Shown here: positions 25,901 through 51,349 of the stretch, one piece after another
Layout: each line of letters begins with the position of its first letter
Numbering within the stretch: position 1 is the stretch's first letter
NCBI GenBank assembly: GCA_043228905.1
Contig: JBHGNT010000007.1
Coordinates: 16,926,001-16,990,000, forward strand
DNA length: 64,000 bases
From: Azolla caroliniana
Lineage: Eukaryota > Plantae > Polypodiophyta
Reading direction: 5' to 3'
Program-made: the position numbers and the translations under genes
The notes under the pieces: model-generated
The model's database searches: none
What the model was told of the DNA's origin: nothing
What the model saw: only the letters and a program-made list of their open reading frames with translations

Positions 25901-26782
25901 GACGTTAGAGATATCGCATTTTATCTCGAAGTATAAGAAACTATGGTCCGCGCCAATAGGACATGGGGCCACTCGGAAGGAGTTAATCATGTGGGTAGCT
26001 TCAGGGCGTCCTATTAGATAATCGACTGTGCTTTCCCCTCCTCCATGTGGGAAACATGTGAGCTCTTCCGAACTTGGCCACTTGGCTAAACCATTATATA
26101 TGACCATTTGGTGCCGACTACCGAGTTCGAGCAAATGATGGCCAAAGCTCGTGGCGTCTGCACCTTGATCCTTTGATCTACGTGTGGTGTCTATGTCTGA
26201 AGGATCGACATTTACCATTTCTAGGTTTCTATTCATTTGAAATATTGTGCATTGTCGGGATTGGGTTCTCGCATTAAAGTCTCCTACAAGGAATACTTCG
26301 CCTTGGGAAGAATATCGGATTATGTCATCCGATAGAGGTTCATATGGGGAAGGCCCATGTGGCACTCCGTCATCAACTAATCTCGCCTCGCCAGCCAGAT
26401 TATAACGAGAGCCTTTTGGGGGGAAGTAACAAATGGCGAAAATTACTGCCTTGTCCTTGCTTGTGGAGACTTTCACCCACATAAAACGAGCTTCTGGGTC
26501 TGTGCTCAGTATTTCTATCCTATTATGTAGCTCCCTCCGAAACAATATTGCGACACCTCCAGATCCCCTGGTAGTGCATCGACGTGAGGTTTGTCTAAAA
26601 GCCGACTCCCAACGAAATCCTTCGACTCGTGGGAGTCCCCTATTTGGGCTTTGGTGTGTTTCTACTAGGCAAACTATATCTGATTCCTTTAATATCCCCT
26701 CTAGGCGGCCGGGGTGTGTCCAGAGTGCGCCGTTACAATTCCATAAGGTCATCCTAAGTGTGTTTTCTGTCACATGGGCCAC
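22988..26782 (-). pseudogene. LINE ORF2: APE endonuclease, reverse transcriptase and C-terminal CCHC; one premature in-frame TGA at 25829-25831
   Basis: APE motifs WNCNG, CLVETH, GDFNAR, TVDY and GADH; RT motifs QAGFR, FVDFRKAFD, GVKQGCPLSP, LYADD and YLG; C-terminal RICRLC..EDEYHFTCKC. ORFs 25829-26782 and 22988-25687 share one frame, with 47 open codons between them. Confidence 0.92.
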
Positions 26783-26788
26783 ACGCCG

Positions 26789-27595
26789 TCAATTAGTAGT
26801 GCGATCATTTATGATCACTCGCCCATCTCGATAAAAGGCGCGATGCCCGTCTTTGCGAGCTTGCATAACCTTTGGCATACAACTCTTGCGATGCTCAATT
26901 TGCATCTTGGTGAGGTCTTCATCGAGATAGATAGGGTCCCCACCCAATCCTCGAAGAATTGGTCTCTTCTTAAAGAAAGTGATTCTAGAGTCTAAGTCTT
27001 TAAATTGAAGAACTAAGGCTCTCTTCCTAGTTGTGTCGCGTCCGGCCCTCCAAGCTTTGGTGATAGGTAGGGTCGTTGTGTACCCTAACATTTTCCCGAG
27101 TGTTTGTGCATCCTCGTCCGGGGATGCACCTTCCTTGAGCCCAATGACACGCACATTTAGGCGTCGGGCCTGACACATTTTCTCCTCTTCGAGGGTGGTA
27201 TTAACAATATTTTCATCCTTTATTTCTTTTTTAATGTTTCTTTTAACGACATCTACCCAACCTGTTTTTGCTAACTCTATGTTATTTTTAACCTCCTCTT
27301 TAACTTTTTTGATCTCATCTTTTATATCCTCTATGGAGGATATTTCACCGTCCTCTCGGGATACCTTGATGTCATTAAGTTGTTGTTTGAGGTTTGTGTT
27401 TTCCTCTTTAAGTTTTTCTATTTCGGCCTTGAGGGTGTCTTTTTCCTCTCTATCTTTTTTCTTGTGGGTTTCGGCGTCTTTCACCCATTTTTTCATATCC
27501 GTCTCTATTTTTGTTAAACGGTTAAACATATCCAAAAAGTCCTCCTTACTTATAGCCTCGTCTTGTGTATCCTTGTGTTCCTTTCGTTTAGACAT
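26789..27595 (-). CDS. LINE ORF1 (coiled coil plus RRM-like region)
   Basis: 268 aa; N-terminal heptad-rich coiled coil; RRLNVRVIGLKE, LVLQFKD and IYLDEDLTK motifs typical of LINE ORF1 RNA-binding regions. Confidence 0.85.
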   Translation of the reverse strand: MSKRKEHKDTQDEAISKEDFLDMFNRLTKIETDMKKWVKDAETHKKKDREEKDTLKAEIEKLKEENTNLKQQLNDIKVSREDGEISSIEDIKDEIKKVKEEVKNNIELAKTGWVDVVKRNIKKEIKDENIVNTTLEEEKMCQARRLNVRVIGLKEGASPDEDAQTLGKMLGYTTTLPITKAWRAGRDTTRKRALVLQFKDLDSRITFFKKRPILRGLGGDPIYLDEDLTKMQIEHRKSCMPKVMQARKDGHRAFYRDGRVIINDRTTN

Positions 27596-30992: not shown

Positions 30993-32573
30993 TGTTGGAC
31001 TCATTTTTATTGTCATAGTGAATTTGATTTACTAGATGTCTCGGCCTATGGGAGCAATGAATGGCTATATGTCCTAGACCTCCGCAATATAAGCACAGAC
31101 AGTTTGCTTGCTGTCGTTGCTTCTCTTCGTCCGACAACAGTCCTCGTCGTTGAGTGATATCGATGTCCATGGGTGTAGGATTATCCATTGGGACTGGACT
31201 ACGTGTTTGCCTTGGAGTTGGAGCAGGGCTATATGTTTGCCTTGGGGATGATTGTGTCGTTACTGATGCATAAGTTGGTGTGAATCTTGATCTTGTTATT
31301 TGTTGTTGTCACTCACATTGATGCTCAAAAAGGCGATTATCACCTTGTATTGCTCAACTAATAGCTTTTGTAAGTGACCTTGGATCCTTAGGGAAGGTAG
31401 GAAGTAAGTCTTTGACATCACTACAAAGGCCTGGATGGAATTACTCCATTAGGGCTTGTTCATCCCAAGGAATATTGCTTGCGACAAGATGGAAATTGGT
31501 TACATATGTCGAACCTAGCTGATCACCTTGACGTAGTGTACGAATCTTGAGGATAATTGTTCTCACCCCATTAGTATCTCCGAAACAAGCCTTAAATTCT
31601 TTGATAAATTCCTCAAAATTATTCAGTAGAGGAGAATTTGTCTCTAGCAATGGAGCAAACTACGAGAACGTTATGCCAGTCAATAAGGTGCCCACTAACC
31701 CGACTCGTGATGCATCTGCCGGATAACGTTTGGGATGCATTTGAATCACCAACCATACTTGATTCAAGAAACCTCGGAAATGCGCCCTTGAACCATCAAA
31801 TTTAGCTGGGAGGCTGATTTTGGATTCCTTGATAAGTCCTTGACCTTCGACCCTTTGTTGTTGTAACACTACGATTGTCGACTCTAATTGTTGAACTTGT
31901 CGTGTGAACTCCTCTTGTTGTTGCCGCTTTTCTATAGTAACCTTTTGTAGATCCCCAAGTAGACGTTGATTCTCTACTTCAAGAGATGCGAACTTGGATT
32001 TAATATTCTCCATTTCTGCAACAAGGGTGAGATATTCTTCTGAGTTAATGGCAACCATGGTTTCGTGATGGTTACAGAGGAGGATGAGAGAGAGAGAGAG
32101 AGAGTGAGTGAGGGAATTTGAATCAAACTGTCAAAACCAAGAATAAAAGATAGAGTGATAGAAGAAGGATATAAGGGAACACGAGAAGAAAGGAACGAAA
32201 TGCTAATAGAAGAATGAGTGTATTAAGATAGAGAAAGAAAGAGAATGGATACAAGATATGTAATGAGAGCTAAAGACTAGTGTTGATTCGAATTGATTTG
32301 AGAATACATGTATGCCCTTATTTATAGGTTCCTATAGAATAGCTTAGAGATTTCTATAATGTTCTAGAATGTTCTAGACCTAGAATGTTCTAGGACATTC
32401 TAGAACATTCTAGAATGATCTAGAGTTTTTACAATAATCAATCTAATACAAAAAGTAGCTTATATCCTTTGATATGACAATAAGCTATCTTAATGATTGA
32501 GGTTTTCAATTATGGATTACAAGGTTCGAGGTTCAAGTCTGGGTGACGCCATAATGGTCATGTGTTCATGACA
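30993..32573 (-). mobile_element. Tcn1-like Gypsy element E: 5' LTR (32129-32573) and decayed gag
   Basis: LTR TGTCATGAAC...TGACA; gag LPAKFDGSRAHFRGFLNQ, IPWDEQALM, PTPMDID and zinc knuckle CLYCGGLGHIAIHC; truncated after gag. Confidence 0.85.
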
Positions 32574-33240
32574 CCATCTGCTCGAGCTCTAGGTTTTCTG
32601 TGTGAGAATATCTCGGAGGGGGTGGTCATCTTGACTACTGGTGAGAATATCTCGGAGTAGTCGACCCCATGTTCTTGTTTGAAACCCAATTTGTAGTTTG
32701 ACCAGCTCCCATGTCTAATTCTTGTGAATCGAGTCCATTTCGAATTTCATGGCTTGTAGCCATGTTTCGACGTCTGTTGCAGCCATAGCTTCTTCATAAG
32801 TGCTTGGTTCTCCTGCATCGATGTAGTTGACATAGTCGAGGCCAAGTTGGTAGAACTCTTTCTGCCTTCGAGCTCGTCCAGATCTCCTAAGTGCCGAACT
32901 AAGAGGTTCAGATTCTTCCATCGGGCTTCACATCCGAATACATGGAGCCTATTGTAGGTCGGTTGTTTGCCTGACCATAGTGCCTGTGGCACTTCGAGCC
33001 TGATTACCTTCGACGGTGATAGATTTACAAAGTATACTGTCATTTGCAATGCTTTAGCCTAGAACTCCAGTTTTAGTCCGGCTTGTTGGAGCATTGCCAT
33101 CACCCTCTCCTGGATTGTTCGGTTGATCCGTTCTACCACTCCATTCTACATGGATGTGTAAGGAACAGTCTTTTGATGTCGAATACCTTTTTTGGACAGG
33201 TACTGCTAGGAGGTATATTCGCCTCCGTTGTCGGATCGGA
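32574..33240 (-). mobile_element. Copia integrase/RT fragment (related to element C)
   Basis: RSDNGGEY near 33215-33240, RLHVFGC, GEPSTYEEAM...WLQAMKFEMDSI; internal deletions. Confidence 0.75.
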
Positions 33241-34036
33241 GTGTCTCTCTCTATCTCTCACTCTTTGTGTACACGCTCTATCAACACTCTATTACAGCAT
33301 CATCACTAAAGTGATTGCCCTAAGTCATATTTATACTTATATGACATTTGGGCTATTTACAAATATAGCCTCGATGGGCTCACCATGAAACATATTTACA
33401 CATATGTCCTTGGATCCGGTTGGCACCGGATCCATCCGGTTTCCGAGTCTCATCTGGAACCCTTTCGGATCTTGTTCCTTCATCCAACTCGTCCGATCCG
33501 GCTTCTCCGGTTGTCATCCGAATACCATCCGGAGGGACTGAATTCCCAACAAATTCCCCCTTCACTCCGGCATGGGATTTCTCTTAATCCGATCCGTTTC
33601 CGACACATGTCTAGTTTGTCAGCTGATAGCACCTTGGTTAGCATATCCGATCCGTTCTTCGTGTGGATCTTCGTTTGCACGAAGTCTTGATCTTCTACTT
33701 TCTCCTGGATCCAATGATACCTTGGTTGGATATGCTTCGTCCAGGAATGGTAGGCCGCATTATTCGCAAGGTGGATGGCACTTTGATTGTCGTAGTAGAG
33801 CCGGAATTCCTCCTGCCGGATCCCTACCTCTCCAATGAAATCCTTCATCCAAATTATCTCCTTGCTGGCTTGCACAGCTGCCATGTACTTCGATAGTGCA
33901 ACGGACTTCTGCAGCCTTGATTGCCATGATACAGCTCCCCCTGCATAAGTCATGATATATCCGAATGTAGCTCGACTGGTATCCGCATCAGCCGACATAT
34001 CTGAATCCGTGAAACCGTTAAGTTGGGGTTTACCGA

Positions 34037-34950
34037 TGTCGTGAAGATTTTCGACAACAGTGTGAAAATCGCGTGGAATCGAGAAGGTGTAATGTGCACA
34101 CGAATGAAAGGGGTGATGGTTACACTCATACATTAGCATGTTGTAAATATAAATGTAATGAGAACACCTAAAGCCTATTTGCATTTTCAAGCATGCGAAG
34201 GGGTGCAAGTATTGAACCTTGCACCTCCAAGATAGAAGACAACTGACTTATCATTAGGCTAAGTTATTTCTTCAAATCATCGTTATGTTTTTCACATGTG
34301 AATGCTCATACATGAGAGCTTGGATGAGGTACATGGTCATCATGCATCACATGTGATGCATGAGCGCCAAATGGCAATCATGCCTCGCATGCATTTCATG
34401 CATTGTATGCATGTCTTACACCCTCACATGCACATATGCATGGGGGCATCTATATAAGTGGGAATCGATCGATGAATCAAACAAGCTATGTATCAAGCAA
34501 GCTATGGATTAAACCAAGATATTTTAATAAGAAAACCTAGGTATCTTATTGGCGATGTGTCTTGTTTCTCTAAATTAAAGTGAAGGGTTCAAACCTAGAA
34601 TTGGAATTTCAATCCGTCTACATCTATCTATCTATCTATCTTAAATACTTCCTCAATTTTCGTTTCTCTCTCTCACACACTCTCAACCACATTAGTGTGT
34701 TACTTCAGCTACCTACACGTCAATCTACCGCACCATTGAGTCGGGTTCGGGAGCGTCTTCGACAACAAAGGACGACTCGATGATAAGCCTAAATGGCCAA
34801 TTCCTTACAAACACAAGTCACCCGATTTGTTCTCCCCGGTCAAAGACCTTGGTGGTCCCGTTCAACTGACCCGTAGGCGCGGAAATCCCATCGTCAATCC
34901 TCCATAACCACTAGCGGATAGAGGCCCGGTGCTTGTCTGCGCTTGTGACA
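34037..34950 (+). mobile_element. LTR-like insertion (TGTCGTGAAGAT family) within element F
   Basis: 5' end and central ATGAGCGCCAAATGGCAA..GGCATCTATA block are shared with 41025-41890; the right end is uncertain (34764 or 34950). Confidence 0.6.
34198..34262 (-). other. tRNA-Arg-like module inside an LTR
   Basis: Minus strand: TAGCCTAATGATAAGTC..CTTCTAT..GGTGCAAG GTTCAATA CTTGCACC, i.e. A box, TCT-type loop and a paired T-arm-like hairpin. Confidence 0.55.
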
Positions 34951-35091
34951 CGCACATCTCGAGCCAAACCGGAGGCACATATTCGAGGTGCCCTTCAGAT
35001 ACAGGACTATCCACTTGACCGCGTTCCAGTGCTCTCTTCCCGGATTGCTCATGAACCGACTAACTACTCCGACAACATATGCAATATCCGG

Positions 35092-35640
35092 TGTCGTGAC
35101 TCTTGAGTAGGAAGCAGAGAGAGAGAGCGATGGCGATAGAGATAACGATAACGATAGAGATGGCGAGAGCGGTAGAGATAACGATAGTGATAGAAAGAGA
35201 GTGAAAGAGGGAGAGAGTGCGAGAGAGAGAAAAGTATAAGTGAGAGATAAGAAATGGGAATGCGATTATATTATGAGAAAGAAGATTACAAGGAGTAGGC
35301 TAAGGGCTAAAGACTGGTGTTGAACCGAATGAGTTGTGATGAGTGTATGGACTCTTATTTATAGGCCCTTATGGAGTATTCTAGAATGTTCTAGAATATT
35401 TTAGATATTTATGAATAATAATAATAATAAATATAATCATGAAATATTCAAGAACATTCTAGAATAATCTAGAATGTTCTAAATATCTCGTAATAACTAA
35501 ACATATAATTATTATGATTACATCTCACATATGTTATTACAATGGTTAAAGTACAATATGTAAACCAAGAGGTTATGGGTTCGATTCCTGGTTCGCCAAG
35601 ATGAATGTCATGATAAGCCAAGATGTATGTCTTCATGACA
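35092..35640 (-). mobile_element. Solo LTR of the Tcn1-like chromovirus family (related to G)
   Basis: TG...CA termini; 5-bp TSD TCCGG at 35087-35091 and 35641-35645; homologous to LTR 50018-50510. Confidence 0.92.
35533..35598 (+). other. tRNA-like (Pol III A/B-box) module inside the LTR, antisense to the element
   Basis: TATTACAATGGTTA ... GGTTCGATTCC ... GCCA. Homologues at 32480-32551 (+), 45098-45165 (-) and 50037-50104 (-). It does not fold into a full cloverleaf. Confidence 0.6.
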
Positions 35641-38205
35641 TCCGGCCAGGTACACACCATTGCGCACATCAAGCTCCCGACGACGGAGGCATATGGTATC
35701 TTCATCATATCCGTCTTCTCCGACATGTTGAACCATTGAAGCACCTTTGTCACGTACTTCTCTTGTGACAACCACAACAACTTCTTCGGCAAGTCCTAGA
35801 TGATGTGCATCCCTAATATCTGTTTTGCCAAACCCAAGTCTTTCATTGAGAAGGTTCGGTTCAGAGCCTTCTTCAGTATTCGGATCTTGTTTTGGTCTCT
35901 TCCGACAATCAACATGTCGTCCACATAAATCAGGAGTATCAAGAAGTCGCCTCTGTCAAATTTCTTCACAAACACGCAGTGGTCCGCTTGTGTCTTGTGG
36001 TACCTTGGGTTGGTCATGAAGGAGTTGAACTTCCAGTACCATTGCTGGGGGGCTTGCTTCAATCCGTATAGGCTCTTCTTTAGCCGGCATACCAGGTGCT
36101 CCTTCCCTTTCCTCTCAAATCCTTCTGGTTGATGCATGTAGATCTCTTCTTCGAGGTCGCCATGTAGGAATGTCGTCTTAACGTCCAGTTGCTCTACCTC
36201 GAGGTCCATGCTTGCCACTCTGCTCAATACCGTCCGGATGGATGTCATCTTTACTACCGAGGTGAAGATCTCGTTGAAATCAACTCCTTTCTTCTGCTGG
36301 AACCCCTTCACCATGATCCAGGCTTTGTACCTTGGTGGATTTCCAGCGTCTCCCGATTTCAGCTTGTACACCCACTTGTTCAGGAGTGCCCTCTTTCCTT
36401 TCAGCAACTCCGTCAGTTCGTATGTGTGGTTCTCATGTAGGAAATCCATCTCGTCCTGCATGGTACTCAACCACTTGTGGTTGTGGGTGTCTTTCTTAGG
36501 TTCCTCGAAGCTTTCCGGCTCCCCCTCATTGGTCAACAATACGTGCTTTGCATCCGGAAATCTCCGGAGGGCTCTTCTCTCTCTGAGAGGGTATCCAACT
36601 CCAGTGGTGCATTCCGTCTCATCGGTGGTCTTGAGCGGAAGGAGATTCAGTTATGCTTTCCGGCCAAGAAATCGGTGCACTCCTCAAGATCCATGTCTTT
36701 CACCTTCGGAATGCGGTTGTCTTTGGCAGGTCTTCTCATCCCCTTCTGGGTCATATGACACAGTCTCTTGTGCCACAGCTCACTGGTAGTGTCAGATGCT
36801 ACATTCACTTCTTCCCGGCATATCCGGACATGCATCAGATACATCGTGTTAATCATCCAGGCTCGAGCCACAATCAGGCTTCCTTTTCTGAATTTCATGA
36901 TTCCGTTCAAGATGCTACCCATGTAGCCTTCATCATCTAGCCGACCGGCTGATATCAGGTTCAACCGAACCTACGGAATGTGTCGCAATTTGCATCCGGT
37001 TGATATCATCAACAACACATCTCGTATGCCGATGATTCGGCAGGTCCCTTCATTCTGCATCCGGACACAACCGTGATCTCCGGCTGTGTAGGATGAGAAG
37101 CATTTCCGTCCGATGTTAGATGGAATGATGCTCCGGAATTGACAACCCACGTTGTCTCGTCGCCAACAAGGTTTAACTCATTCTCCTCAGCAATGAGCAT
37201 CAGTTCTTCTTCACTTGTCGTGATCGCCGACGTTCCTTTCCGATCCGGACCTCTCCGGTCCGAACTCTTCTTCAGATCGGTGGTTTTGACCCCTTTCTCT
37301 TTCTGGAAATGTTGACAGTTCTTATGGAATTGCCCCGGCTTCCCACAGTAAAAGCAAGTGGGCCTTCCCCTTGACTTCGACCTCGTCCCCGATTTGTCCC
37401 AGTTTTGGGGACTTTGATACCAGCCTCTTCCCCGGTTTTGGTCATCTTCCATGACCAAGGCCTTCAGATCCGTTCCAGATTCCCAGTCCTTCCGGCAAGG
37501 TTCTTCATCTAGCAAGCTTGATTTTACCCTTGCTAGGGACAACTGCTTTCCTTCCGACTTGGCATTCCCCAAAGTGACAACTAGCGTCTCCTAACTATCT
37601 GGGAGGGAACCGAGCAAGAGCAATGCAAGTACCTCATTGGCCATAGGTACTTCAAACAAAGTTGTTTGATTTATGAGCCCTTGAAATGCATTCATGTGCT
37701 CTGCCATGCTAGATCCGTCCTGGTACCGGAGTCTCACTAGCTTCCAGAATACCAAAACCCGATTTACGATGTTTTTACTCTCCAGCATAGTGCCGATTTT
37801 CTCCCAGAACACATGAGCTTTACTTTCTTAATTAAAGTTGTTATACAAGCTCATGTTGATGAAGGACCGAATATACGTCGTTGTCTTCATGTGCATCACC
37901 TCCCATGTCGTGGCATCGATCTTGTCGGGTTTCTTGTCCCCGAACTGTACCGGCAGCCAGAGATCTTTTACCACGAGCATGTCCCTCATCTTCGACTTCC
38001 AAACTGGGTAGTTGGAGCCAGTGAGCTTGAACATGCCACCGAATGATTCTTCCATTCCCTTGTTAGCTTTGATACCAGTTTGTGCAGAAAATTAGCGCTT
38101 GGCCACAATTGAGTCTTAAACAACGAATGGAAGGAAAAAACAAACTAACAACTAGATGACACACGATGTTTATGTGGAAACCCTAAATGGGAAGATGGGA
38201 AGATA

Positions 38206-41200
38206 AGAAACGGGTCCCTCTGGATGGGAAGATAATAGCCGAGTTGATGAGAAACTCGGTCGAGGCCGAATCCGAAATCGTGTAGACAGCCAACTCAGAA
38301 GACTATACTTCTAAATAGTCTAAATATGTCCTTATGGGCTACACTTGTAAATAACCCAAAAGGTGTACTAGTATAAGTACTTAGGGAAATCATAATGTGA
38401 TTATGAGTTAATGTTAAAAAGCTACTTAGAAGGTTGTTGCCTCTATAACTGTGTAACGATAAGCGAGTGAGAGTGAGAGAGTGTGTAATTATGTAGTCGT
38501 CTGTTGACGAAGTAAAATCTCGACGTCGTTGCCTTAGAGCTTCTATTTGTACTCCTCCTCTTAGCATAGTGATTCTGTTTCTCAATGTTTGTGGACCCCC
38601 GTGGTTTTCCCATTTCGGGTTTTCACGATAAGATCGTGTGTTTCTATCTCTTGTGTTATTTCTGTTTTCGTACTCTGCCTGAGTGCATTCTACTTTATGT
38701 TCCCTACACCCGAACATCTGAATGATAAACCGGTTGTGGCCGGTCACGATTCTCGACAAAGTGGTATCAGAGCGAACAACACATGAAATGGAAGAATCGT
38801 TCGGCGGCATGTTCAAGCTCACCGGATCCAACTACTCAGTGTGGAAGTCAAAGATGAGGGATATGCTAGTGGTTAAAGATCTTTCGTTGCCGGTTTAGTT
38901 CAAGGACAAGAGACCGAATAAGATTGACGCCACAATGTGGGATGTGATGCACATGAAGACGACGACATATATCCAGTGCTTCATTGACATGAGCCTGTAC
39001 AACAATTTCAATGAAGACAGCAAGGCTCATGAACTCTGGGAGAAGATTGGCATCATGTTACAAAACAAGAATGTTGTTAATCAAGTTTCGGTATTCCGGA
39101 AGCTAGTGAGGCTCCGGTACCAGGACGGCTCCAGTATGGCGGAGCACATGAATGCCTTCCTGGGATTGATACACCAAGCCATCTCGTTGGAAGTACCTCT
39201 TGTGGATTAGGTACTCGCATTGCTCCTACTTGGTTCCCTCCCGGATTGTTGGGAGACGTTAGTTGTCACGTTGGGCAACGCCGGGCCGGAAGAAACGTAG
39301 TTGTCCCCAGCAAGGGTAAAATCAAGCCTGCTAGGTGAAGAAGCTCACTGAAAGGACCGAGAGTCCGGAACCGATCCGAAGGCCTTGGTTACGGAAGATG
39401 ACCACAACCGGGGAAGAGGCCGGTATCGGAGTCCCCAAAACAGGGACAAATCGAGGACGAGGTCAAAGTTGAGAAGAAGGCCCACGTGCTTCTATTGCAG
39501 GAAGCCGGTGCACTTTCAAAAGAATTGCCGACATTTCTGAAAGGAAAAGGGGGAGCCGATGGTGTGCAACCGAAAAAAAATCGAAAAGCAGGAACACCTT
39601 GGCGATCGCGACAAGTGAGGAGGAGTTGCTGCTCATTAGCGAGCAGAACGAAGTGAGCCTTGTCGGCGATGAATCAACATGGGTGGTCGATTCGGGTGCG
39701 TCATTTCACCTAACCCCTGACCGGAAATGCTTCTCATCGTACAGGGCCAATGATCTCGGATCCGTAAAGATGGGAAATGAAGAAGCATGTCGAATTGTCG
39801 GCATTGGAAACATGTGTTTGGTGACCTCAACTGGCTGCAGACTTGTGCTGAGAGATGTTCAACACATTCCGGAGGTTCGATTGAACCTGATATCAGCCGG
39901 TCGGCTGGATGATGAAAGCTACACGAGTAGCATCCGGAATGGTGTCATGAGGTTCTGCAAGGGGAGCCTAATCGTGGCTCAAGCACGGAAAACCAACACA
40001 CTGTACGTAATGAATGCTCGATTATGTCGTGGGGAAGTGAATGTGGCAGCCAAAACAATCGATGAACTATGGCACATGAGGTTGTGCCACATGAGCCAAA
40101 AGGGGATGCAGAAGCTTGCTGAGGAGAACCTCATTCCGAAGGTGAAGAATGTGCAACTTGAGAAATGCACGGATTGCTTGGCCGGTAAGAAAAATCGAAC
40201 ATCCTTCCAAACAAGGCCCCCAATGAGGAAGAAGATACCCCTGGAACTCGTGCATATGGATGTATGCTACGTGGAGACGAAGTCGCATAGTGGTTCACAA
40301 TATTTCGTGACCTTTATAGACGATTATAGTTGGAAGTTGTGGGCTTTCATGCTAAAGACGAAGGATCAAGTGCTATCCGTCTTCAAAGAGTTCCAAGTGA
40401 GGGTCAAGAGAGAAACCGGTCGTAAGTTGAAGGCAGTCCGAGCGGACAATGGCGGAGAGTACCGTGAACCGTTCGAAGAATATTGCCGAAAAGAATGAAT
40501 CCAACTTGAGTATACCATGCCAAAAATGCCAGAGCTGAATGGGTTGGCCAAGAGAATGAATGGGACCATAATGGAGAGAGTTTGAAGCATGCTTGCACAT
40601 GCAAAATTACCGAAAACGTTTTGGGTTGAGGCGCTAATAACAACAGCATATGTGATAAACCGATCACCCTCAGTACCCTGGATGGTGATATTCCACAACG
40701 AGTGTGGAGCAGCAAAGACATGTCGTACCGACATTTGAGGGTGTTCTGTTGTCTTGCTTTTGTGCATCTAGCAAAGGACCAAAGGGGGAAATTAGACTCG
40801 AAATCTCGGCCGTGCATATTTCTCGGTTACGGCGATGATGAGTTCGGTTATCGGCTATGGGACTTAGCCGAGAAGAAGATGATTAGGAGCCGAGACATTG
40901 TCTTCATGGAAGAGAATACAATGATTGATTGGGAGAATGAGAAAAATTCTCCAACCACCGAATCGAGCCGAGTCGATGCTCGGTTGGATCGTGTAGATGA
41001 CGATTCGATCGAAATCAAACCCGTTGTCGTGAAGATTTTCGGCAATGGTGTGAAAATCACATAAAACGTACGAAATCGAGTGTGATTCATATAAAACAAT
41101 AATAGTGAAGATACTAATTTTAAGTAAGTTTAATATCTTAGTACAAAAAGATGGAGGTCTTAAAGAGCTTTCGGATACACTTTACTACATAAGAAACGGA

Positions 41201-44200
41201 CATCTAAGTGTCAACTTATGTTGGTAGAAAGTTTGCAAACAAAGAGAAAAATAAAATTGTGAGATATCCCACATAGACAGGATAAATAAGGATCTCACCA
41301 TATATAAGAAAGAGCAAAAGCTATTATCATTGTGTTTATGTGTGCAGCATAGAGAGTTCAAGGTGACTTGAACTAAGCTATTGGATGAATGGGTGTGGCC
41401 TAGCTACTTGCAAAGGTTTTGGCCAACCAAAACCGAACCGGCGACAGAACACATTTTCTTGGAATTATATTTTTATCATTGTAACTTTACATGTAAATTC
41501 TCATACATGAGAGCTAAAATGAGTGACATGGTTAACATGCACCGCATGTTATACATGAGCGCCAAATGGCAAACATGCATTTTATGCATGTCTTGTACCC
41601 TCAAATGCATGAGGGCATCTATAAAAGAGGGGAGGAAAAAGATGAAAGAATTAATGTAAAATTTTTGGATGATCAAATAAGAGACTTCTAACCCTATTGT
41701 TGATGTATCTTCCCTCTCAAATCTAAAATCAAGAGTTAAATCTTTATTTAAGTATCTCTTTCTTGCCATATCAATCTCTCTCAATCTATCTTAAATACTT
41801 TCTCGCTAAAACTAGCATAAACTTCGAATCCTTCCGGTCCCCCGGCAGTTCTGCCTCACAATCCGCGCCTAGTGATAGATCTTCACGACACCATACCAAT
41901 CGATCTATCTAATACTCAGCAAAATCGAGAAATGACTAATGAGCAAGGGGAGTCGGCCGAACGAGGAACCAAAATCGACTCAGACAAAGAGGTTGAAGAC
42001 GAACTAACCATACCAAACACAGGCCAAAGATACCCCCTTAGAGAGCGAAGAGCCCCCCGAAGATTTCCGGATGAAGAACGCGTACTGATAACCGATGAGG
42101 GGGAGCCTGAAAGCTACGAAGAAGCTAAGAAAGATACCCACAGCCGAGAGTGGTTACGTGCCATGCAAGAGGAGATGGATTCCTTGCATGAAAACCACAC
42201 ATATGAACTAACCAATTTGCCGAAGGGGAAGAATGCACTCTGAAATAAGTGGGTATACAAGTTGGAACCAGGAGATAGCCGAAATCCACCCAGATACAAA
42301 GCATGAATTGTCGTAAAAGGGTTTCAACAGAAGAAGGGTGTGGATTTCAACGAAATATTTTCCCCGGTAATGAAAATGACATCCATCCGAACCGTGTTGA
42401 GCATTCCTGCCAACATGGATCTCGAAGTCGAACAATTGGATGTCAAGATGGCGTTTCTGCATGGAGATCTTGAAGAGGAGATATATATGCAGCAACCTGA
42501 AGGATTCATAATGAAAGGTAAAGAAAACCTAGTATGCCGGTTGAGGAAGAGCCTGTACAAGTTGAAGCAGGATCCACGGCAAGGGTACCGAAAATTCGAT
42601 TCCTTCAACACCAAAAACGGGTACCACAAAACACAGGCCGATCATTGCGTATTTTTGAAGAAGTTCGATGGAGGAGATTTCCTCATCCTTTTGTTGTACG
42701 TGGACGACATGCTAATTGTCAGACATGACCATATGAAGATCCGAGCACTGAAGAAAGCCTTCAATAGGTCATTCTCGATGAAGGATATGGGTCCGGCAAA
42801 GCAAATCCTAGGTATGCACATTGTTCGGGACAGAACAAAGAAATTGTTATGGCAGTCACAGGAGAAATATGTGACAAAGGTGCTCCAGAGATTTGGCATG
42901 GAAGGCGCGAAACCAGTCGGCTCAACACTGCCGACGAACTGCAAGTTGAGTAAAGATCAATGTCCGAAATCGAAAACCGAAAAGGCCGAGATGTCAAAAG
43001 TCCCCTATGCCTTGGCGGTTGGAAGCCTGATGTACGCAATGGTGTGTACCAGGACGGACATTGGATACGCCGTCAGAGTGGTCAACTGATATATGAGCAA
43101 TCCCGGGAAAGAGCATTGGGCTGCCGTGAAATGGATATTTTGGTACCTAATAGGCACCTCAAGCATGTGTCTTCGTTTTGGCTTAGGTAACCCCACATTG
43201 GAAGGCTACACGGATTCAGACATGTCGGTTGATGCAGATACCAGTCGATCCACGTCCGGATACGTAATGACGTATGCAGGGGGAGTTGTCATGGTGTTGT
43301 CGACCATGGAAGCCGAGTACATGGCCGCGGTGAAAGCCGGCAAGGAAATCATATGGATGAAGGAGTTTATCAATGAGCTGGGAATTTGGCAGGAAGAATT
43401 CCAATTCTATTGCAATAATCAGATTGCCATCCACCTTGCAAAAAATGTTGCCTACCACTCGAGGACAAAACACATCCAACGGAGGTATCATTGGCTCTAG
43501 GAGAGGGTAGAAGAAAGGGAGTTCGCTCTAGTGAAGGTCCACACGACCGAAAAGGGATCAGATATGTTGACTAAAGTGTTACCAGCTAAAAAGCTGAGCG
43601 TGTGCCGACGGAAGATCAGATTGGTGCAGTACCCCATGCCGGAGTGAAGGGGGAGTTTGTTAGGAAACGGGTCCCTCTAGATGGGAAGATAATAGCCGAG
43701 TTGATGAGAAACTCGGCTGAGGCCGAATCCGAAATCGTGTAGACAACCAACTCGGAAGACTATACTTGTAAATAGTCTAAATATGTCCTTGTGGGCTACA
43801 CTTGTAAATAACCCAAAAGGTGTACTAGTATAAGTGCTTAGAGCAATCATAATGTGATTATGAGTTATTGTTAAAGAGTTACTTAAAAGGTCGTTGCCTC
43901 TATAATTGCGTAACTGTAAGCAAGTGAGAGTGAGAGAGTGTGTAACTGTGTAGCCGTCTGTTGAGAAGTAGAATCTCGAGGTCGTTGCTTCGGAGCTTCT
44001 ACTCCTCTTAGCATAGTGATTATGTTTCTCAATGTTTGTGGACCCCCGTGGTTTTCCCATTTCGGGTTTCCACGATAAGATCGTGTGTTTCTATCTCTTG
44101 TGTTATTTTTGTTTTCGTACTCTGTCTAAGTGCATTCTACTTTACGTTCCCTACACCCGAACATCTGAACGATAAGCCGGTTGTGGCCGGTCACGATTCT

Positions 44201-44205
44201 TGATA
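38206..44205 (+). mobile_element. Near-complete but mutated Copia element H
   Basis: 5' LTR ~38206-38758 (first bases lost); PBS TGGTATCAGAGC 38762-38773; gag-PR-INT-RT-RH fragments (ORFs 39599-40498, 42340-43089, 43093-43500); PPT; 3' LTR 43658-44205. Confidence 0.92.
41025..41890 (+). mobile_element. Solo LTR (866 bp) inserted in element H
   Basis: 12-bp terminal inverted repeat TGTCGTGAAGAT/ATCTTCACGACA; flanks CCGT/CCAT; TATA-like TATAAAAG at ~41620. Confidence 0.8.
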
Positions 44206-44840
44206 GTTTTTTATCGGATGGTATTCCAACCAGTTTTGTCAGCTTCTGCCAATTCATCAACGGTAAGTCCCATCAATTTTTGCCGAATGTCCTCGATGAG
44301 GACTTGGCTGATCGTCTCATCCAGATTTAGGATCGGTCGGTTATTGGTGTATGTTGTGCAAAATACCTCCCAACTCACCGACAAGCTCAATAGGAGGGCA
44401 AGGGCTTTCACTTCTTCTTCGAAGTTGATCCATTGCGAGGAGAGTTCTGACAACACCCGACTGAAGGTGTTGATGTGAGAGGTGTCCGAACCAGTCTCTC
44501 TCATCTTCATGTTGAACAGTCCTTTGATCAAGATCAGTTTTGAAGATGAGGAATTTTTCTCGTACACGGCTTGTAGCTTCTCCCATAATAAGAACGTTGT
44601 CGTCTCTTTTGCCAAGCTAAAGTAGACGTTTTCGGATAGGTGCATTCGAATTGTGGAGCGTGCGATTTCGTCCATTCATCTCCACTCATCAGCCGACATT
44701 GAAGCAGGCTTTTTGGAGTGTCGAATGGCCTCGACCTATCTTCGAATAATCAATACGTGCTACATCTCCTTCCATAGGGCAAAGTTTTTGCTGTTGAATT
44801 TTTGGATCTCAACTTCTGTACCGGATGTTGATGCCATGAT
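44206..44840 (-). mobile_element. Copia gag fragment
   Basis: IQKFNSKNFALWK, ARSTIRMHLSENV, LWEKLQAVYEK and ALALLLSL..SW (UBN2-type gag). Confidence 0.8.
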
Positions 44841-45215
44841 TCTTTTGAAAGTGAGATTTGCTAACCTAGTCTTTTTCCTTGCAGCTTTTTTTGTGTTGTT
44901 TGTTGCCGCTGTCATGATGTTTCTAACACATAGTGTGAAACCATCCTCGAAAAGAAGTAAAATAGTAGTTCAAATAAACTAGTATTGTGAAGTCAACTTT
45001 ATTGGTAGCAAAAATACTTTTTCATTTTCCAAAGATAATTCCTTATAAATAAAAGGTCAAAGGATTGAACCTTACTATTGTCATGAAGACAACATTTTGG
45101 TTATCAAGAATCGAACCCACGGCTTCTTGGTCTATGTGTTAAACCCTTAACCATTGTAATAACATATATGATGTGTGATTGTAATAATTATGTTTCTAGT
45201 TATTACAAGATATTA

Positions 45216-45292
45216 GAATATTCTAGAACATTCTAGATTATTCTAGAATATTCTAGATTATTCTAGAATATTCTAGATTATTCTAGAACATC
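45216..45292. promoter_or_regulatory. Heat-shock element (nGAAnnTTCn) array in LTR U3
   Basis: GAATATTCTAGAACATTC followed by 10-bp TTCTAGA(AC/AT/TT)A units, ~80-150 bp upstream of TATAAATA (45371). Equivalent arrays occur at ~50155-50220, ~32355-32425 and ~35375-35480. Confidence 0.75.
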
Positions 45293-46380
45293 CTTTAATA
45301 TTTCATGATTATATTTCTTATCATAAAATCTAAAATATTCTAGAACATTCTAGATTACTCCACATGGACCTATAAATAACTGTCTATACATTTGTTTCAA
45401 CTCATTCAGTTCAAACTGTTGAGACTCGTGGGTAGAAGATAGAGTGAGAGCGAGAGTGAGAGCGAAAGAGAGAGGGTGTGTGTGTGCGCGTGAGAGAGAT
45501 AAGACTTAAAATAGAAATGAGATTATATTATGATGAAACAAGATTACAATGAGTAGGTTCCTGAATCAAGTCCGTTTGGTGATTCAGTTACATCCCAATC
45601 GGTACCCAACTGATGCTGCTTGTGTGGGATTAATAGGAACCTTGCTAAGCGGTACCGCATTAGCATGGTTTGCACCACTTCTAGAGAAGAAATCACCATT
45701 GTTGGAGGATTTCGAGGCATTCGTTAAAGAATTTCAAGCTAGTTTTGGAGACACCGATAGCACTAGAACGGCAATAAACAAGATTTGAAGACTCCGACAA
45801 GGAGATCGTCCCGCTTCAGCCTACGCAGCAGATTTCCATCTCTTGGCATGTGACATCCCTTGGGATGAGGCAGCCTTAATGGATCAATTTTGTCAGGGTT
45901 TGCATAACGATGTCAAAGATCTTCTTCTTACTTTCCACGAAGATCCAAAGTCTCTTACAGAGGCCATTAGTCGAGCTATGCGATGTGATAATCGCCTATA
46001 TGAGCGACGTTCTGAACGTCAACAAATGTTACGCCGTCAACCAGAACAGACGTATGCTTCAATAGTCGCAACACCGCCACACGTTCCCAGACCCGTTACG
46101 AGGGATGGTCCCACTCCGATGGAAATAGAGTCAACACAACGTCGAGGGCCTTTATCAGATGCTGAGAAACAACGACGTCGGGCGCATCGCCTATGCCTCT
46201 ACCGTGGTGGTCCAGGACATATTGATGTGAATTGTCCACATAAACCCAGACGACAAGTTTACCAAGTGCACATGACAACCCTACCATGAGTTCTACTATC
46301 ACTTCTAATAACTTAACTACTAAGCCTAATAACCCATGCCATGAGAATAGATTTGATGTCTTGAGCCAATTAGAGGATGT

Positions 46381-46425
46381 GTTAAACGAATAAGTCCGGC
46401 CAAAATAGGAGCCATTTGGTTGGAC
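46381..46425 (+). promoter_or_regulatory. Putative -1 ribosomal frameshift signal (gag to pol)
   Basis: Slippery G_TTA_AAC, 6-nt spacer, and 11-bp stem GTCCGGCCAAA/TTTGGTTGGAC. The zero frame stops at TAA 46391-46393; the -1 frame is open into the protease. Confidence 0.75.
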
Positions 46426-49400
46426 CATCCTAGATATGTAGAGTTTGTACCTAGTTGTGGTTCCATTTCATCAAATCAAGTTAGTAGAGTTTTTTCTGCA
46501 CAAGTCAAGCTTAGCACATCTACAAGTCATCGAGTCCTAGCCTCTACCCTCCTAGATTCTGGAGCCAATTCTTGTTTCATGGATCGCGAGTTTGCATTGA
46601 CCCAAAACATCATCTTGAACAAGCTCTCGAACCCAGTAGCTGTAGGAGTCATTGATGATCGCCCTATAGCATCAGGTGATATAGTCGAAGAGTCTGAATC
46701 AATTCGTGTAGTCCTAGGTAATTTGGCTAGTATCATCTCATTCAACATCATTAGTAGTCCAGAGCACTCTCTAGTTCTTGGTCTTCCTTGGTTTGAGTTA
46801 CATAACCCAACTATTGATTGGAGAAAAAGAACTATTGAAGAGGTCATAGTACAGTCCGAGTCTCTTGAAACTCCAACAAAGGATCTAGGATCCCACATGA
46901 TTTCAACAATCTCTATACATCAGTTACGAGAGGATGGAAGGAAGGAAGACATGATGGTGTTTGCGGTTTTAGCAACTCCCTCATCTACCTCACAAGAATT
47001 GGGGGGTCCAATTACCAAAGAAGTACATAGAATTCTCCGATGTGTTCGATAAGGTGAAGGCTAATAGATTACCAGAGCATTGACCCTATGATTGCCCAAT
47101 TGATTTGCAGCCAGGAAAAGAGCCTCCATGGGGACCAATTTATAACCTTTCGCCCACAGAGTTAGAGGTTCTTCAAGAATATATAGATGAGAACCTGGCA
47201 AATGGTTTTATCCAACATTCAAGATCTCTTGCTGGTGCACCCATCTTTTTCGTTAAGAAGAAAGATGGTACGCTTCGTATGGTCGTGGATTATCGGGGCT
47301 TGAATAAAGTAACTATTAGAAACCGATATGATCTACCATTGATCTCAAGCCTTCTAGAACGCCTCAGTGGAGCAAAGTTTTTCACGAAGTTAGATCTTCG
47401 AGGTGCCTACAACCTTGTTCGCATTCGTCCTGGGGATGAATGGAAGACCGCATTCCGCACTCGCTATGGTCATTTTGAATATACAGTGATGCCATTTGGT
47501 CTCACGAATGCACCAGCAGTTTCCAACATATGGCGAATGACATTTTTCGAGACTTCCTCAATATCTTCATCATAGTTTACTTGGATGATATCTTGATCTA
47601 CTCAAAAACTCAAGAGGAGCATGAGATACATGTTCGCCAAGTTTTGCAACGGTTACGAGAGTATGGTCTCTATGCAAAATTGGAGAAGTGTAGTTTCAAC
47701 CAGTGTCAAGTGGAATTTTTGGGGTACATAATCTCTTCAAATGGCATCTCTATGGATCCATCAAAGGTTCAAACAATTTTGGATTGGCAAACACCACAGT
47801 CTGTGCGAGATGTACAATGTTTTTTGGGGTTCGCAAACTTTTATCGCAAGTTCATCAAAGATTATTCAAAGATTGTATTCCCCCTCACTCAACTAACGCG
47901 CAAGAATCAACCATTTGTATGGGGTATAGATGCAAACTCTGCATTTGAGGGTTTAAAGCAAGTGTTTACATCTGCACCAATTTTAATGCATGTTGATCCA
48001 ATGAGGCGCTTTAAACTTGAAGCTGATGCATTTGATTTCGCACTTGGAAGCGTACTATCCCATATTGGTGAAGATGGTGAACTGCACCCTGTGGCTTTTC
48101 ATTCACAGAAATTTGAAGCCGCAGAAATCAACTATGAGATTCACAACAAAGAGCTTCTTGCCATTGTGGATTCTTTTCAACAATGGCGTCATTTTTTGGA
48201 GGGTTCTTCTCAACAGATTATTGTCTTCAATGATCACAAAAATCTAACATACTTCCAAAGTGCTCAAGTCTTGAATCGTCGACAAGCTCGTTGGGCGCAG
48301 TTCTTAACTTGTTTTGATTTTGTAATTCTATATCGCCCTGGGATGCAACAAGGAAAAGCAGATGCTTTATCTCAATGTTCGTATATGGAACTTCAACCAG
48401 GAGAGGCCGCATTTGAAAGTCAAAAGCAAATCCTCTTAGGTCCTGATCGTCTACGAGTAATGGCAATACATACTATCAACACACCAGGAGATTCGAGGCT
48501 TCTTGATTCCATTCGGGAGCAGATTGCGACAGATGCATTTGCCCAAGAGGTTTTGAGTCATATTATCCCAGATCGTGCTTCTAGCTCTCAATCTAAAGAT
48601 CCTCATCTAGACTACACCCAGTTCAATTGGCATGATGGTTTGCTTTTTCGACAAACTCTCTTGTATGTGCATGACGGTCCTTCTCGACTCAAAGTCGTGC
48701 AACAATGTCATGACACGCCAATGGCTGGACATTTCGGCATCCACAAGACTTTTGAGTTGATTTCTCGCCAATATTGGTGGCCACAGCTTCGCCATTTTGT
48801 TACGGATTATGTTCGTAGTTGTGACACATGTTGCCGATCAAAAAAGCCTCGACATCATCCATATGGCCTATTACAGCCAATGCCTATTCTGGAGAGCCCA
48901 TGGAAATCTATTTCCTTGGACTTTATTACGGATCTTCCACCTTCCAAGGGATTGGATTCTATTCTCACGGTAGTCGATCGTTTTACGAAGATGGCGCATT
49001 TCCTTCCATGCACGAAGACCATTACTAGTCAAGAGACAGCCGATTTACTCATGCGGGAGGTGTTTCGCCATCATGGTCTTCCGGATGATATTATCAGTGA
49101 TCGGGGTCCCCAATTCATCTCGAAATTTTGGCGGCACATGTTCAAACTCTTACATACTTCTTGTAAACTCTCTTCCGGCTACCATCCAGAGACTAATGGG
49201 CAGAGTGAGCACACCAACCAAACAATCGAACAATATCTACGTTGTTTTGTCAACTATCAACAAGATGATTGGGTGGATTTATTACATTTGGCGGAATTTG
49301 CTTACAACAACTCCGAACATTCTTCTACTGGCTATTCCCCATTTTTTGCTAACATTGGGTACCATCCTCGTTGGACGATGCTTGAACATCCCGAACTCCC

Positions 49401-49884
49401 AAAAAACCCGGTTGCTGAAGATCGGCTCACTCGACTCCAAGAAATTCAAGATATACTTTTGCATCATTTATGTGATGCCCAAAACACTCAAAAGAAGATT
49501 GTTGATCGTCATCGGCGTGATTCATCGACTACGTTTCAAGTAGGAGATCGTGTATGGCTCTTACAAGGTAGCATTAAAACCACTCGACCTTGTTACAAAT
49601 TGGATTATCAACGTTTCGGCCCATATGTGATCTCTGGTAAGATCAATGATGTGACATTTCGTCTTGATCTCCCTCCTCATATCTGTCTTCACCCGGTCTT
49701 CCATGTTTCACTTTTGGAGCCCTACACAACAAGCTCTATTCCGGGTCGTCTTACACCTCCCCCACCTCCAATCGAAGTTTCCAATGGCTCTGAATATGAG
49801 GTTGCTGCTATTCTCGACTCCAAGATCATCCGCAACAAACTATATTATTTGGTTGATTGGTTAGGTTATACACCTAATGATTGA
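46381..49884 (+). pseudogene. Gypsy G pol (PR-RT-RH-INT-chromodomain) with a few frameshifts and stops
   Basis: ORFs 46420-47052, 47105-47575 and 47530-49884; the chromodomain is interrupted by TGA (PND*TWEP). Confidence 0.9.
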
Positions 49885-51349
49885 ACATGGGAGCCTGTTG
49901 AGCATCTTGCTAATGCCTCCAACATGGTTGTTGCATTTCACGACAAATATCCCCATAAACCAAGTCTGAACTCTTGTCTTCCGACTCGTGGAACTCGTCG
50001 TCGAAAGGGGGAGATAATGTCATGAAGACAACATTTTGGTTATCAAGAATCAAACCCACGGCTTCTTGGTCTATGTGTTGAACCCTTAACCATTGTAATA
50101 ACATATATGATGTGTGATTATAATAATTATGTTTCTAGTTATTACAAGATATTAGAATATTCTAGAACATTCTAGATTAGTCTAGAACATTCTAGATTAT
50201 TCTAGATTATTCTAGAACATCCTTTAATATTTCATGATTATATTTCTTATCATAAAATCTAAAATATTCTAGAACATTCTAGATTACTCCACAAGGACCT
50301 ATAAATAACTGTCTATACATTCGTTTCAACTCATTCGGTTCAACACCAGTTTTTAGCCCTTAGCCTACTCATTGTAATCTTGTTTCATCATAATATAATC
50401 TCATTTCTATTTCAAGTCTTATCTCTCTCACTCTCTCTCTCTCACGCACACACACACACACACCCTCTCTCTTTCGCTCTCACTCTATCTTCTATCCACG
50501 AGTCTCAACAACTATAAATAATGGTGAATATTAAGTTAGAGGCGGTTTTCAAAAGTAGACAAAAGTAGAGAAAAAGATGGGGTGGAAAAAAGAAACACCC
50601 GTGGATATGAGGAGCACAGCAGAGAAAAAAGCTAATAATTTCCTCATCAGATGTCCAAATTAGAAAAAAGAAAAGATGCATAACAAAGCTAACCCAAAGA
50701 GCTTTCCAAGAATATCTTGCATGTGAAATAGTGAGATAAAGAAAAGCCGACTCATATAGACAAGCTTTTTTTTAGGGGAAAAAGGCAAGCAATCCTAAAC
50801 CTATAAATAAGAGTCTATTCTAGTGAAGAAAGGGGGGAGGGAGATGGAACGCGGAAACTCTACTCAATTGGAAGGCAAAAGAAGACGGATCAACAACATC
50901 AAGAGGCATCATCAACAAAGAATCACCTTCTTCTATATTCCACTCTCTTCTTTCCTCCACCTCTCTTCCCCCTTCCTTTATAAATTATCACTCATATTCA
51001 TATCAAACCCGTTGTAAAATTGATTCTTGTTTTATAAAAGAACCTATTATATTGCAATAAACTAATGTTTGGTTTCACCTACGTGTCTTAAATGTTATCG
51101 TCATTTGTGTTTATTTGTTTGTGTGTCTTGTGACAAGGGAGCGTTTCGAGCTTGCCCATGCACCTCTCCTCTCACAAAGGCATTCAAACTTACGTGTCTT
51201 ATATGTTATTGTCATTTGTGCTTATATGTTTGTGTGTCTTGTGACAAGGGAGCGTTTCGGGCTTGCCCGTGCACCTCTCCTTTCACAAAGGCATTCAAAC
51301 TTTCGTGTCTTGTGTGTTCGTGCAACTTGTGGCATTTCTTGAGCATTCA

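Follow-up and report, generated by a model that had tools for sequence, protein, structure and literature searches.

The 64,000-nt stretch of Azolla caroliniana DNA analysed here (the window) raises the question why the LTRs of chromoviruses should carry, close to the tip of U3 and facing backwards, a stretch resembling part of a tRNA gene, and what such a stretch might do there. Four of these stretches (32480-32551, 35533-35598, 45098-45165 and 50037-50104) had been pointed out in an initial annotation, and each was found to hold an A box and a B box at tRNA spacing near the U3 tip, antisense to the element. The four LTRs had been assigned to at least two diverged subfamilies; the number of subfamilies is three (A, B and C).

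Family B is represented by the 5' LTR of a Tcn1-type chromovirus (32129-32573, minus strand; 445 bp, TG...CA ends), followed by the PBS and a gag-like frame. The B box of its antisense unit was placed at 32530-32540 (plus strand) from the sequence, its relatives and the matrix score, and the A box at 32486-32496 (plus strand) has one G altered in the window copy and is undamaged in most of the 30 relatives shown; 653 candidates for this LTR were found, of which 40 were scored (93-100%). The PBS of the element (32116-32128, minus strand) is of the self-priming type and can pair at 10 of 11 bases with the start of R, which lies at 32283-32293, 33 nt behind the TATA box. Family C is present as a solo LTR of 549 bp (35092-35640, minus strand) lying within a Copia element and flanked by a 5-bp target duplication. 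Its A box is at 35535-35545 (plus strand; sequence and lineage alignment), and its B box at 35578-35588 (plus strand) matches the tRNA B boxes of this genome perfectly, as had been claimed for the solo LTR. It is a young family, all 40 copies scored among the matches listed being 100% identical over 133 nt, and its LTR pairs lie about 5.4 kb apart. The family A element (45079-50509) has gag and pol frames, and the U3 part of its 5' LTR (45079-45414, plus strand), with an HSE-like array and a TATA box at 45371, is 94.6% identical to the 3' LTR over 336 columns and shares a 5-bp target duplication with the end at 50509. The B box (45107-45117) and the A box (45151-45161) of this LTR are both on the minus strand, as judged from the sequence and its relatives. 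The R-U5 part (45417-45557, minus strand) is inverted, begins at the self-priming repeat and matches 50364-50510 in reverse at 85%. The pol frame (47479-49884, plus strand) encodes RT, RNase H, integrase and SH3, and the chromodomain of this copy is broken by a stop codon. The 3' LTR (50018-50509, plus strand) is preceded by a polypurine tract and has its TATA box at 50300; its unit has the A box at 50090-50100 and the B box at 50046-50056 (both minus strand; the A box judged from the sequence and its relatives), where the C56 position reads T, a single C-to-T change.

The unit is more than a chance resemblance. With weight matrices for the A and B boxes built from the tRNA genes of this genome, the cluster medoids scored 22.5 (the cluster with families A and C) and 27.6 (the cluster with family B), values reached by 0 of 60 shuffles. 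When 89 starts of 3' LTRs were chosen blind to the motif and a score of at least 15 was taken as an A+B unit, 72/89 tips had the unit antisense and 0/89 sense, and bases 141-280 of the same LTRs had none on either strand (0/89). The unit faces outward, away from the promoter, as had been suggested, and it belongs to most copies and many families rather than to sporadic ones. Moreover, a genome-wide search for a polypurine tract, an LTR start and an antisense B box within 80 nt gave 3075 matches (some places double-counted) and 0 in the control, and by hand count 81 of 94 starts from a separate listing recur among these matches. As a control, 49 Copia contexts with a Met PBS were scanned, and 6 showed a match within 500 nt; L105, L118, L209 and L228 come from loci retrieved for a Tcn1-type LTR, L136 and L137 from loci retrieved for tRNA genes.

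Standard tools do not recognize the unit as a tRNA gene, which answers in the negative the covariance-model check that had been proposed for it: ARAGORN at default settings reported no tRNA gene, whether run on the window or on 90 loci with LTRs, and Rfam gave no tRNA match up to E 10, either on the window or on six LTR stretches or loci searched singly. ARAGORN at 80% of its threshold made many calls, on both strands and in the HSE arrays, and was discarded. Of our own models, trained on 14 tRNA genes of this genome and tried on 28 loci, the sequence-only one detected the unit in 18 and the structure model in 8 (rough E 0.05 or better). Detected by neither ARAGORN nor RF00005 and lacking a conserved cloverleaf, the unit does not qualify as a tRNA gene.

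What has been kept was examined in 21 hand-picked, related examples anchored on GG and GTTYRA, with conservation calculated over 19 lineages. The A and B boxes are kept far better than the surrounding U3 (flanks 0.40-0.50), in agreement with the initial annotation, although part of the box conservation is forced by the anchoring. Positions outside the anchors are also kept (A14 1.00, T8 0.84, variable loop 44-47 0.89-1.00, C61 0.95), whereas conservation is low in the anticodon arm (0.52). The distance from G18 to G53 is 34-36 nt in 19 of the 21 examples, compared with 34-38 in the 14 tRNA genes. Bases -40 to -11 have an A+T content of 0.70-0.97, above that of their own LTR (0.61-0.73) in 19/19 examples, and the same region in six nuclear-type tRNA genes has 0.67-0.87. 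Thus the layout of a type 2 Pol III promoter is present, with A and B boxes at workable spacing and AT-rich DNA upstream. On the other hand, pairing in the anticodon stem is 0.37 against 0.36 after row swaps (tRNAs 0.84) and in the T stem 0.64 against 0.60 (tRNAs 1.00). Pairing in the acceptor stem (0.42 against 0.35 after row swaps, p 0.012) lies within the range of slid pairings (0.35-0.43), and this stem and the D stem are weakly tested because the fixed numbering slips with D-loop length, real tRNA controls reaching only 0.70 for the acceptor stem and 0.45 for the D stem. Partial acceptor and T stems occur only in one family (L224 and L356). Anticodon, CCA and terminator are not kept across the 19 lineages. 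The CCA-like end noted earlier does exist at about tRNA positions 71-73 in families A, B and C, but it is not maintained from lineage to lineage (at positions 66-73 the top letter has a share of 0.32-0.63). With stems, anticodon, 3' end and terminator all unconserved, the data support neither an RNA folded like a tRNA nor the small-RNA decoy that had been envisaged. The proposed tRNA- or SINE-type origin is supported. As to the donor, none was identified among 13 recovered tRNA isotypes (several organelle-like), and the anticodon position varies between lineages. Two pattern searches for arginine tRNA genes yielded a single chance match plus a string resembling a B box, located in the 5' leader of Copia elements of one family; the latter shows that chance alone can place an isolated B box in a repeat.

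The elements have the Ty3/gypsy pol order, seen in the family A element of the window, with a C-terminal chromodomain (in L160, a relative of family C, Pfam Chromo gives E 3.5e-12). A self-priming repeat replaces the tRNA PBS; of five 5' LTRs tested, four can pair with it at the R start over 11 of 11 bases and the fifth over 10 of 11. Because the PBS pairs with the R start, a role of the unit as a self-encoded primer was ruled out. The unit spans two integrase clades of self-priming chromoviruses (19 rows, 100/97; 7 rows, 98/96), which are assigned as Tcn1-type by pol order, chromodomain and self-priming, the integrase tree having no named Tcn1 references. Unit-bearing chromoviruses were found in metagenome contigs too. 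A second host is an unrelated, tRNA-primed Gypsy family with no Pfam chromodomain match, in which two antisense units lie at the tip in 18 of 20 near-identical LTRs and a weaker sense unit lies 82 nt behind the TATA box in 20/20, so that the units on both sides point away from the Pol II core. Among the Tcn1-type lineages, L245, L247-L249, L251, L252 and L257 have no unit, nor do four copies of the own genome; GC-rich Phygy-like 5' LTRs have none at the tip in 30 loci (one weak match, L325), and five distant relatives in viral contigs have none. A few A+B matches of ambiguous context were also met in a survey of insertion flanks.

Taking these features together, we see about an even chance that the unit is a DNA docking site for TFIIIC and TFIIIB which guards or opens the adjacent Pol II promoter in silent chromatin. 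The unit would descend from a tRNA gene or the head of a tRNA-type SINE that was taken up by U3 and reached both LTRs when the element was reverse-transcribed, and its boxes would then have been under selection during replication of the element. TFIIIC is predicted to bind the boxes and to load TFIIIB on the neighbouring AT-rich DNA, which separates the A box from the enhancer array. In the 5' LTR the complex, lying between the Pol II promoter and the flanking DNA, might act as a barrier or a nucleosome-free seed, by which the enhancer array and the Pol II TATA box would stay open after insertion into silent chromatin; the outward facing would hold any Pol III off the Pol II core. Several points speak against a docking site, among them the lack of significance in the within-family selection test given below. 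Other high-copy LTR families do without the unit, and in the 3' LTR the unit lies where Pol II must pass in transcribing the element, so that bound TFIIIB, able to act as a roadblock to Pol II, could stop it there. It is known that TFIIIC sites serve as barriers and insulators in yeast and that tDNAs block Pol II read-through (PMC4228148), and chromodomain-directed insertion into heterochromatin has been proposed for RLG1 of moss (PMC7466625); our literature search found no documented barrier activity of tRNA genes in plants.

The unit could instead be an active promoter for Pol III, with an antisense RNA as its functional product. Starting in the 3' LTR, this RNA would extend across the polypurine tract as far as the integrase end and pair with genomic RNA, and would in this way seed small RNAs or tune copy number. 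The conservation of both boxes, the tRNA spacing and the AT-rich upstream DNA exceeds what a bare B-box site needs, the 3' LTR context of family C and of L237 has four consecutive T at 10 nt beyond the tip, and foamy viruses do make small RNAs from Pol III units in their LTRs (PMC3993851). We nevertheless regard it as unlikely, since there is no fixed terminator (of 19 examples, 5 have their first T4 within the LTR, 10 have it 10-232 nt beyond the tip, and 4 have none within 400 nt), neither the fold nor the transcribed sequence is conserved beyond the boxes, and a transcript from the 5' LTR would enter random flank.

It seems less probable that the unit is a neutral relic of one or two old SINE or tRNA insertions in U3, hitchhiking with successful lineages and decaying, although several results fit this. 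The within-family selection test found no significant difference in 54 copies between box sites (8 of 22 with shared variants) and other sites (84 of 177; p 0.30), Rfam recognizes no tRNA, unit-less lineages exist and replicate, and individual copies lose the B box through deletion or decay. An observation that would favour the docking site over a relic concerns the CpG of the B box: CA is the reading of six multi-copy families and TG of none, although single copies do decay to TG (6/45 in the largest family). Strand bias could explain this preference, as two of five other CpG columns show the same pattern. However, unselected decay would wear boxes and spacer equally, and what is seen is that boxes, variable loop and spacing persist across integrases merely 52-70% identical to that of family C while spacer and flanks have turned over. 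Furthermore, the unit recurs, duplicated, in the unrelated Gypsy family.

We consider it quite improbable that a factor other than TFIIIC binds the boxes, or that the sense strand acts as RNA in the 3' U3 of the genomic RNA, in packaging or plus-strand synthesis. The variable-loop letters, better kept in the units than in tRNA genes (0.86 versus 0.64), are not obviously demanded by TFIIIC binding, and several families have short inverted repeats at the LTR tip. Against this, what is kept on the antisense strand corresponds, position by position and in its tRNA spacing, to a type 2 Pol III promoter, the self-priming PBS is unrelated to the unit, and the distance from B box to tip ranges from 6 to 66 nt in the lineage examples. 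Least probable is a landing pad or tether, by which recruited Pol III factors would attract the integrase of the same or other elements or hold cDNA ends at integration: Ty3-like targeting of Pol III sites is established, but among the insertions of families A, B and C, which gave 78 distinct flanks, only 4 flanks have an A+B unit within 600 nt (two being halves of one LTR-LTR junction, L091 and L092, the others at 115 and 221 nt). The 28 of 167 LTRs that break before nt 330 show no common breakpoint; two of the breaks are clear insertions, near nt 138 and nt 155.

Returning to the docking site, a wider proposal, to which we give somewhat less than an even chance, is that a portable, tRNA-derived candidate TFIIIC barrier at the outer LTR edges lets chromodomain-guided autonomous elements land in heterochromatin and yet be transcribed; it would be useful enough for different clades to retain it, would have been acquired or exchanged repeatedly, and in the unrelated Gypsy family would have been doubled to enclose the promoter, with thousands of LTRs seeding TFIIIC sites through the genome. 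Chromoviruses are thought to enter heterochromatin yet need transcription, and a built-in TFIIIC site, if true, would be a concrete answer. The range of captured Pol III promoters would then widen beyond short non-autonomous TRIMs and include autonomous elements, where the unit faces backwards and would have a role other than promoter of the element, and a plant genome would hold thousands of candidate TFIIIC sites, plant boundary elements being poorly known. A retrotransposon with an insulator of its own has a precedent in Drosophila gypsy, whose Su(Hw) insulator works via a protein other than TFIIIC.

The closest known parallels to this architecture are the non-autonomous Helenus and Cassandra TRIMs. 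Our literature search found no autonomous, antisense, U3-tip case of Pol III boxes in LTRs, in line with the impression of the initial annotation that the architecture had not been described. In Helenus (TRIMp3), as here, tRNA-derived LTR sequence keeps boxes A and B; however, Helenus is non-autonomous, 311-1263 bp long and tRNA-primed, and its unit is proposed to transcribe the element (the orientation is not stated outright), whereas here the elements are gag-pol chromoviruses of about 5.4 kb with a TATA box and a self-priming PBS, and the unit faces backwards (PMC10886601). Cassandra and Ajax likewise captured the Pol III promoter of a small-RNA gene and keep it in both LTRs, but the promoter is of the 5S type and drives the transcript of a non-autonomous element, unlike the unit here (PMC10886601). 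The same paper (Kojima 2024, PMC10886601) expects autonomous elements to use Pol II and notes that "not a few LTRs" in Repbase are tRNA-like, its analysis being restricted to TRIMs; the parts of it available to us mention neither moss nor Physcomitrium. The Tcn1 clade of mosses and club-mosses shares the chromodomain, self-priming, the 5-bp target duplication and LTRs of 430-550 bp, and a narrow term search of the available text of its descriptions gave no mention of Pol III boxes in the LTR (PMC6317226, PMC2864245, PMC7466625). Foamy viruses, which are autonomous retroelements too, have miRNA cassettes in their LTR that are Pol III units with A and B boxes and are likewise traversed by Pol II, but these cassettes have stem-loop products and U-run terminators, neither of which is conserved here (PMC3993851). 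Finally, although tDNA and ETC-site barriers and SINE boundaries are host loci, unlike the LTR unit, whose barrier role is predicted, it is their mode, a TFIIIC-bound boundary beside a Pol II promoter (PMC4228148), that is proposed for the chromovirus LTRs.

The window, at positions 16926001-16990000 in a genome of 523 Mb, consists of the nested remains of LINE, Copia and Gypsy elements. The four LTRs considered here fall into three subfamilies of Tcn1-type chromoviruses: a family B 5' LTR at 32129-32573 on the minus strand, a family C solo LTR at 35092-35640 with a 5-bp target duplication, and a family A element whose two LTR ends, at 45079 and 50018-50509, have a target duplication in common. 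The pol frame in the window encodes RT, RNase H, integrase and SH3; a chromodomain was found in a family C copy. The PBS consists of 11 bases that repeat, in inverted orientation, the start of R, which lies 33 nt past the TATA box. This agrees with self-priming as described for Tcn1; among plants, such chromoviruses are recorded in PMC6317226 only from mosses and club-mosses, so that, going by the element types alone, the host would likely be a moss. In the family A 5' LTR, R-U5 (45417-45557) is inverted, beginning at the self-priming repeat, likely because the inverted repeats at the R start and at the PBS recombined; other rearrangements (loci L025/L026 and L092) break at the same self-priming repeat. 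At about 1080-1100 of L091, two abutting family C LTRs have four extra bases between them, matching the expectation for joined, unprocessed cDNA ends (a two-LTR junction). Also in the window are a LINE (22988-27646, minus strand), whose endonuclease and RT frames are open and preceded by an upstream frame, and tandem repeats at 6748-7459 (about 157 bp), 21056-21239 (12/24 bp), 57799-58023 (45 bp) and 58847-59089 (30 bp).

The antisense tRNA-like module proposed in the initial annotation is present, as A-box-like and B-box-like words opposite to the element, in all four LTRs. The covariance-model check suggested there gave no support, as Rfam returned no tRNA match up to E 10; ARAGORN at default settings likewise called no tRNA in the LTR stretches. 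Because of this, the genome's own tRNA genes were used to build weight matrices and two models (sequence-only and structure). Searched on both strands of 28 LTR loci (88 kb), the sequence-only model matched the tip unit in 18 at a rough E ≤0.05 and in 27 at E 10; with the structure model, 8 loci matched at E 0.05. At L031, L048, L049 and L124, nuclear-type tRNA genes stand in single-isotype tandem arrays (Lys, Ile, Arg, Thr).

A pattern of polypurine tract and LTR start, blind to the unit, had 2898 matches genome-wide (control 4), and the same pattern with an antisense B box at most 80 nt away had 3075 (control 0); the end conditions differ and some places are counted twice, so that the two numbers are not usable as a ratio. 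By hand comparison, 81 of 94 starts that could stand in both lists recur. The unit is not merely sporadic: in 89 tips sampled from the list's first 91 starts (one was left out, and two neighbouring ones were treated as one), 72 have an antisense unit at the weight-matrix cut-off of 15 or more within the first 140 nt, with none of the 89 reaching it on the sense strand there or on either strand in the next 140 nt. The 89 tips form 14 clusters, of which 10 have one or more scoring members; as a single cluster comprises 54 copies, copies are not independent. L218, one of the four non-scoring clusters, seems to fit the pattern by chance.

Among 79 metagenome relatives, 8 carry a unit scoring at least 15 no more than 40 nt from a recognised LTR tip, and in 2 others a clear B box lies there. 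In a 55-row integrase tree, built on each element's single best stretch with stops as X and without rows shorter than 110 residues, the unit marks a clade of 19 rows (support 100/97; one of them too short to score) and a second of 7 (support 98/96). The fewest changes are two, with labels set by hand (L253 from family likeness) and a weak 'no' for many distant rows in which an LTR start was not recognised; a single gain with at least two losses may be an alternative. An unrelated Gypsy family, Phygy-like by the description in PMC6317226, has a PBS of tRNA type, 4-bp target duplications of NCGN type and no chromodomain match. Of its 20 near-identical LTRs, 18 carry two antisense units at the tip, and all 20 a weaker sense unit 82 nt past the TATA box (all three, for example, in L155:970-1857 and L156:2887-3774; 1074 genome candidates for this LTR type). 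The family has a 26-nt U3 word in common with Tcn1-type LTRs, so U3 exchange between them is possible. In 30 loci of its GC-rich sister families, the tip unit is absent. Several other arrangements were seen. L151 has three tandem units of about 160 bp (about 4240-4600), each opening with A-box- and B-box-like words, and L147 a further A+B unit (about 1390-1580) some 190 bp inside a TGTCATG-type end. A distant metagenome chromovirus family (L260, L264, L278, L295, L296, L299, L300, L307) shows, at a fixed place downstream of pol and about 400 nt past the integrase match, a strong B-box word in antisense orientation that lacks a good A box. A perfect B-box-like word, with no A box seen, lies in the 5' leader of a Copia family (L182-L206; 379 genome-wide pattern matches), and in L118, L209 and L228 a Tcn1-type LTR end lies at, or at most about 110 nt from, a Copia Met-type PBS.

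The G18-to-G53 distance is 34-36 nt in 19 of 21 lineage examples and 34-38 nt in 14 tRNA genes. As expected in the initial annotation, the boxes are better conserved than their surroundings: in these 21 examples, picked by hand and with anchors that themselves force part of the conservation, the unanchored A14, T8 and C61 reach 1.00, 0.84 and 0.95, against 0.40-0.50 in the flanks. Variable-loop letters 44-47, also unanchored, are conserved at 0.89-1.00, whereas the anticodon arm stands at 0.52. Base pairing is not conserved (anticodon stem 0.37 vs 0.36 in row swaps; T stem 0.64 vs 0.60), nor, across the lineage examples, are the anticodon position, the terminator or the CCA-like end that had been described. 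Partial acceptor and T stems retained in one family (L224, L356) support a tRNA origin, and AT-rich DNA lies upstream of the unit in 19 of 19 examples, as at nuclear-type tRNA genes of this genome. To judge from the sequence, the conserved pattern is that of a DNA promoter rather than an RNA product, and it is unlikely that the unit yields a functional antisense RNA. A neutral relic is still less probable. The B-box CpG reads CA in six multi-copy families and TG in none, while in the largest family 6 of 45 single copies have decayed to TG; a similar CA lean at two of five other CpG columns makes this pattern only suggestive. Tested across 54 copies, within-family conservation did not reach significance (p 0.30). 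A role for another factor or at the RNA level is improbable, and neither 78 flanks nor 167 LTRs gave support for a landing pad, the least probable reading.

The antisense LTR-tip unit is a real, recurrent and clade-wide feature, from which we infer a function. Our preferred reading, at about even odds, is a predicted docking site for TFIIIC/TFIIIB, which would guard or open the neighbouring Pol II promoter. In the 5' LTR the unit lies between flank and enhancer array; this place fits a docking site, given that the chromodomain is thought to direct these elements into heterochromatin (PMC7466625); in yeast, TFIIIC sites are described as barriers (PMC4228148). Against a docking site, however, the unit is missing from several abundant families, and its copy in the 3' LTR sits where the element's own transcription passes through.

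As to the novelty suggested in the initial annotation, no description of tRNA-type boxes in antisense orientation was found for LTRs of mosses or of other autonomous plant elements in the openly accessible papers searched. Many Repbase LTRs are said in PMC10886601 to resemble parts of tRNAs, long ones not being analysed there. Foamy viruses differ in that their LTR Pol III miRNA units are described with hairpins and terminators (PMC3993851). Among the non-autonomous TRIM retrotransposons, Helenus is reported to have tRNA-derived and Cassandra and Ajax 5S-derived boxes in the LTRs (PMC10886601); the elements here depart from two defining features of those TRIMs, being autonomous and carrying a unit that faces backward.
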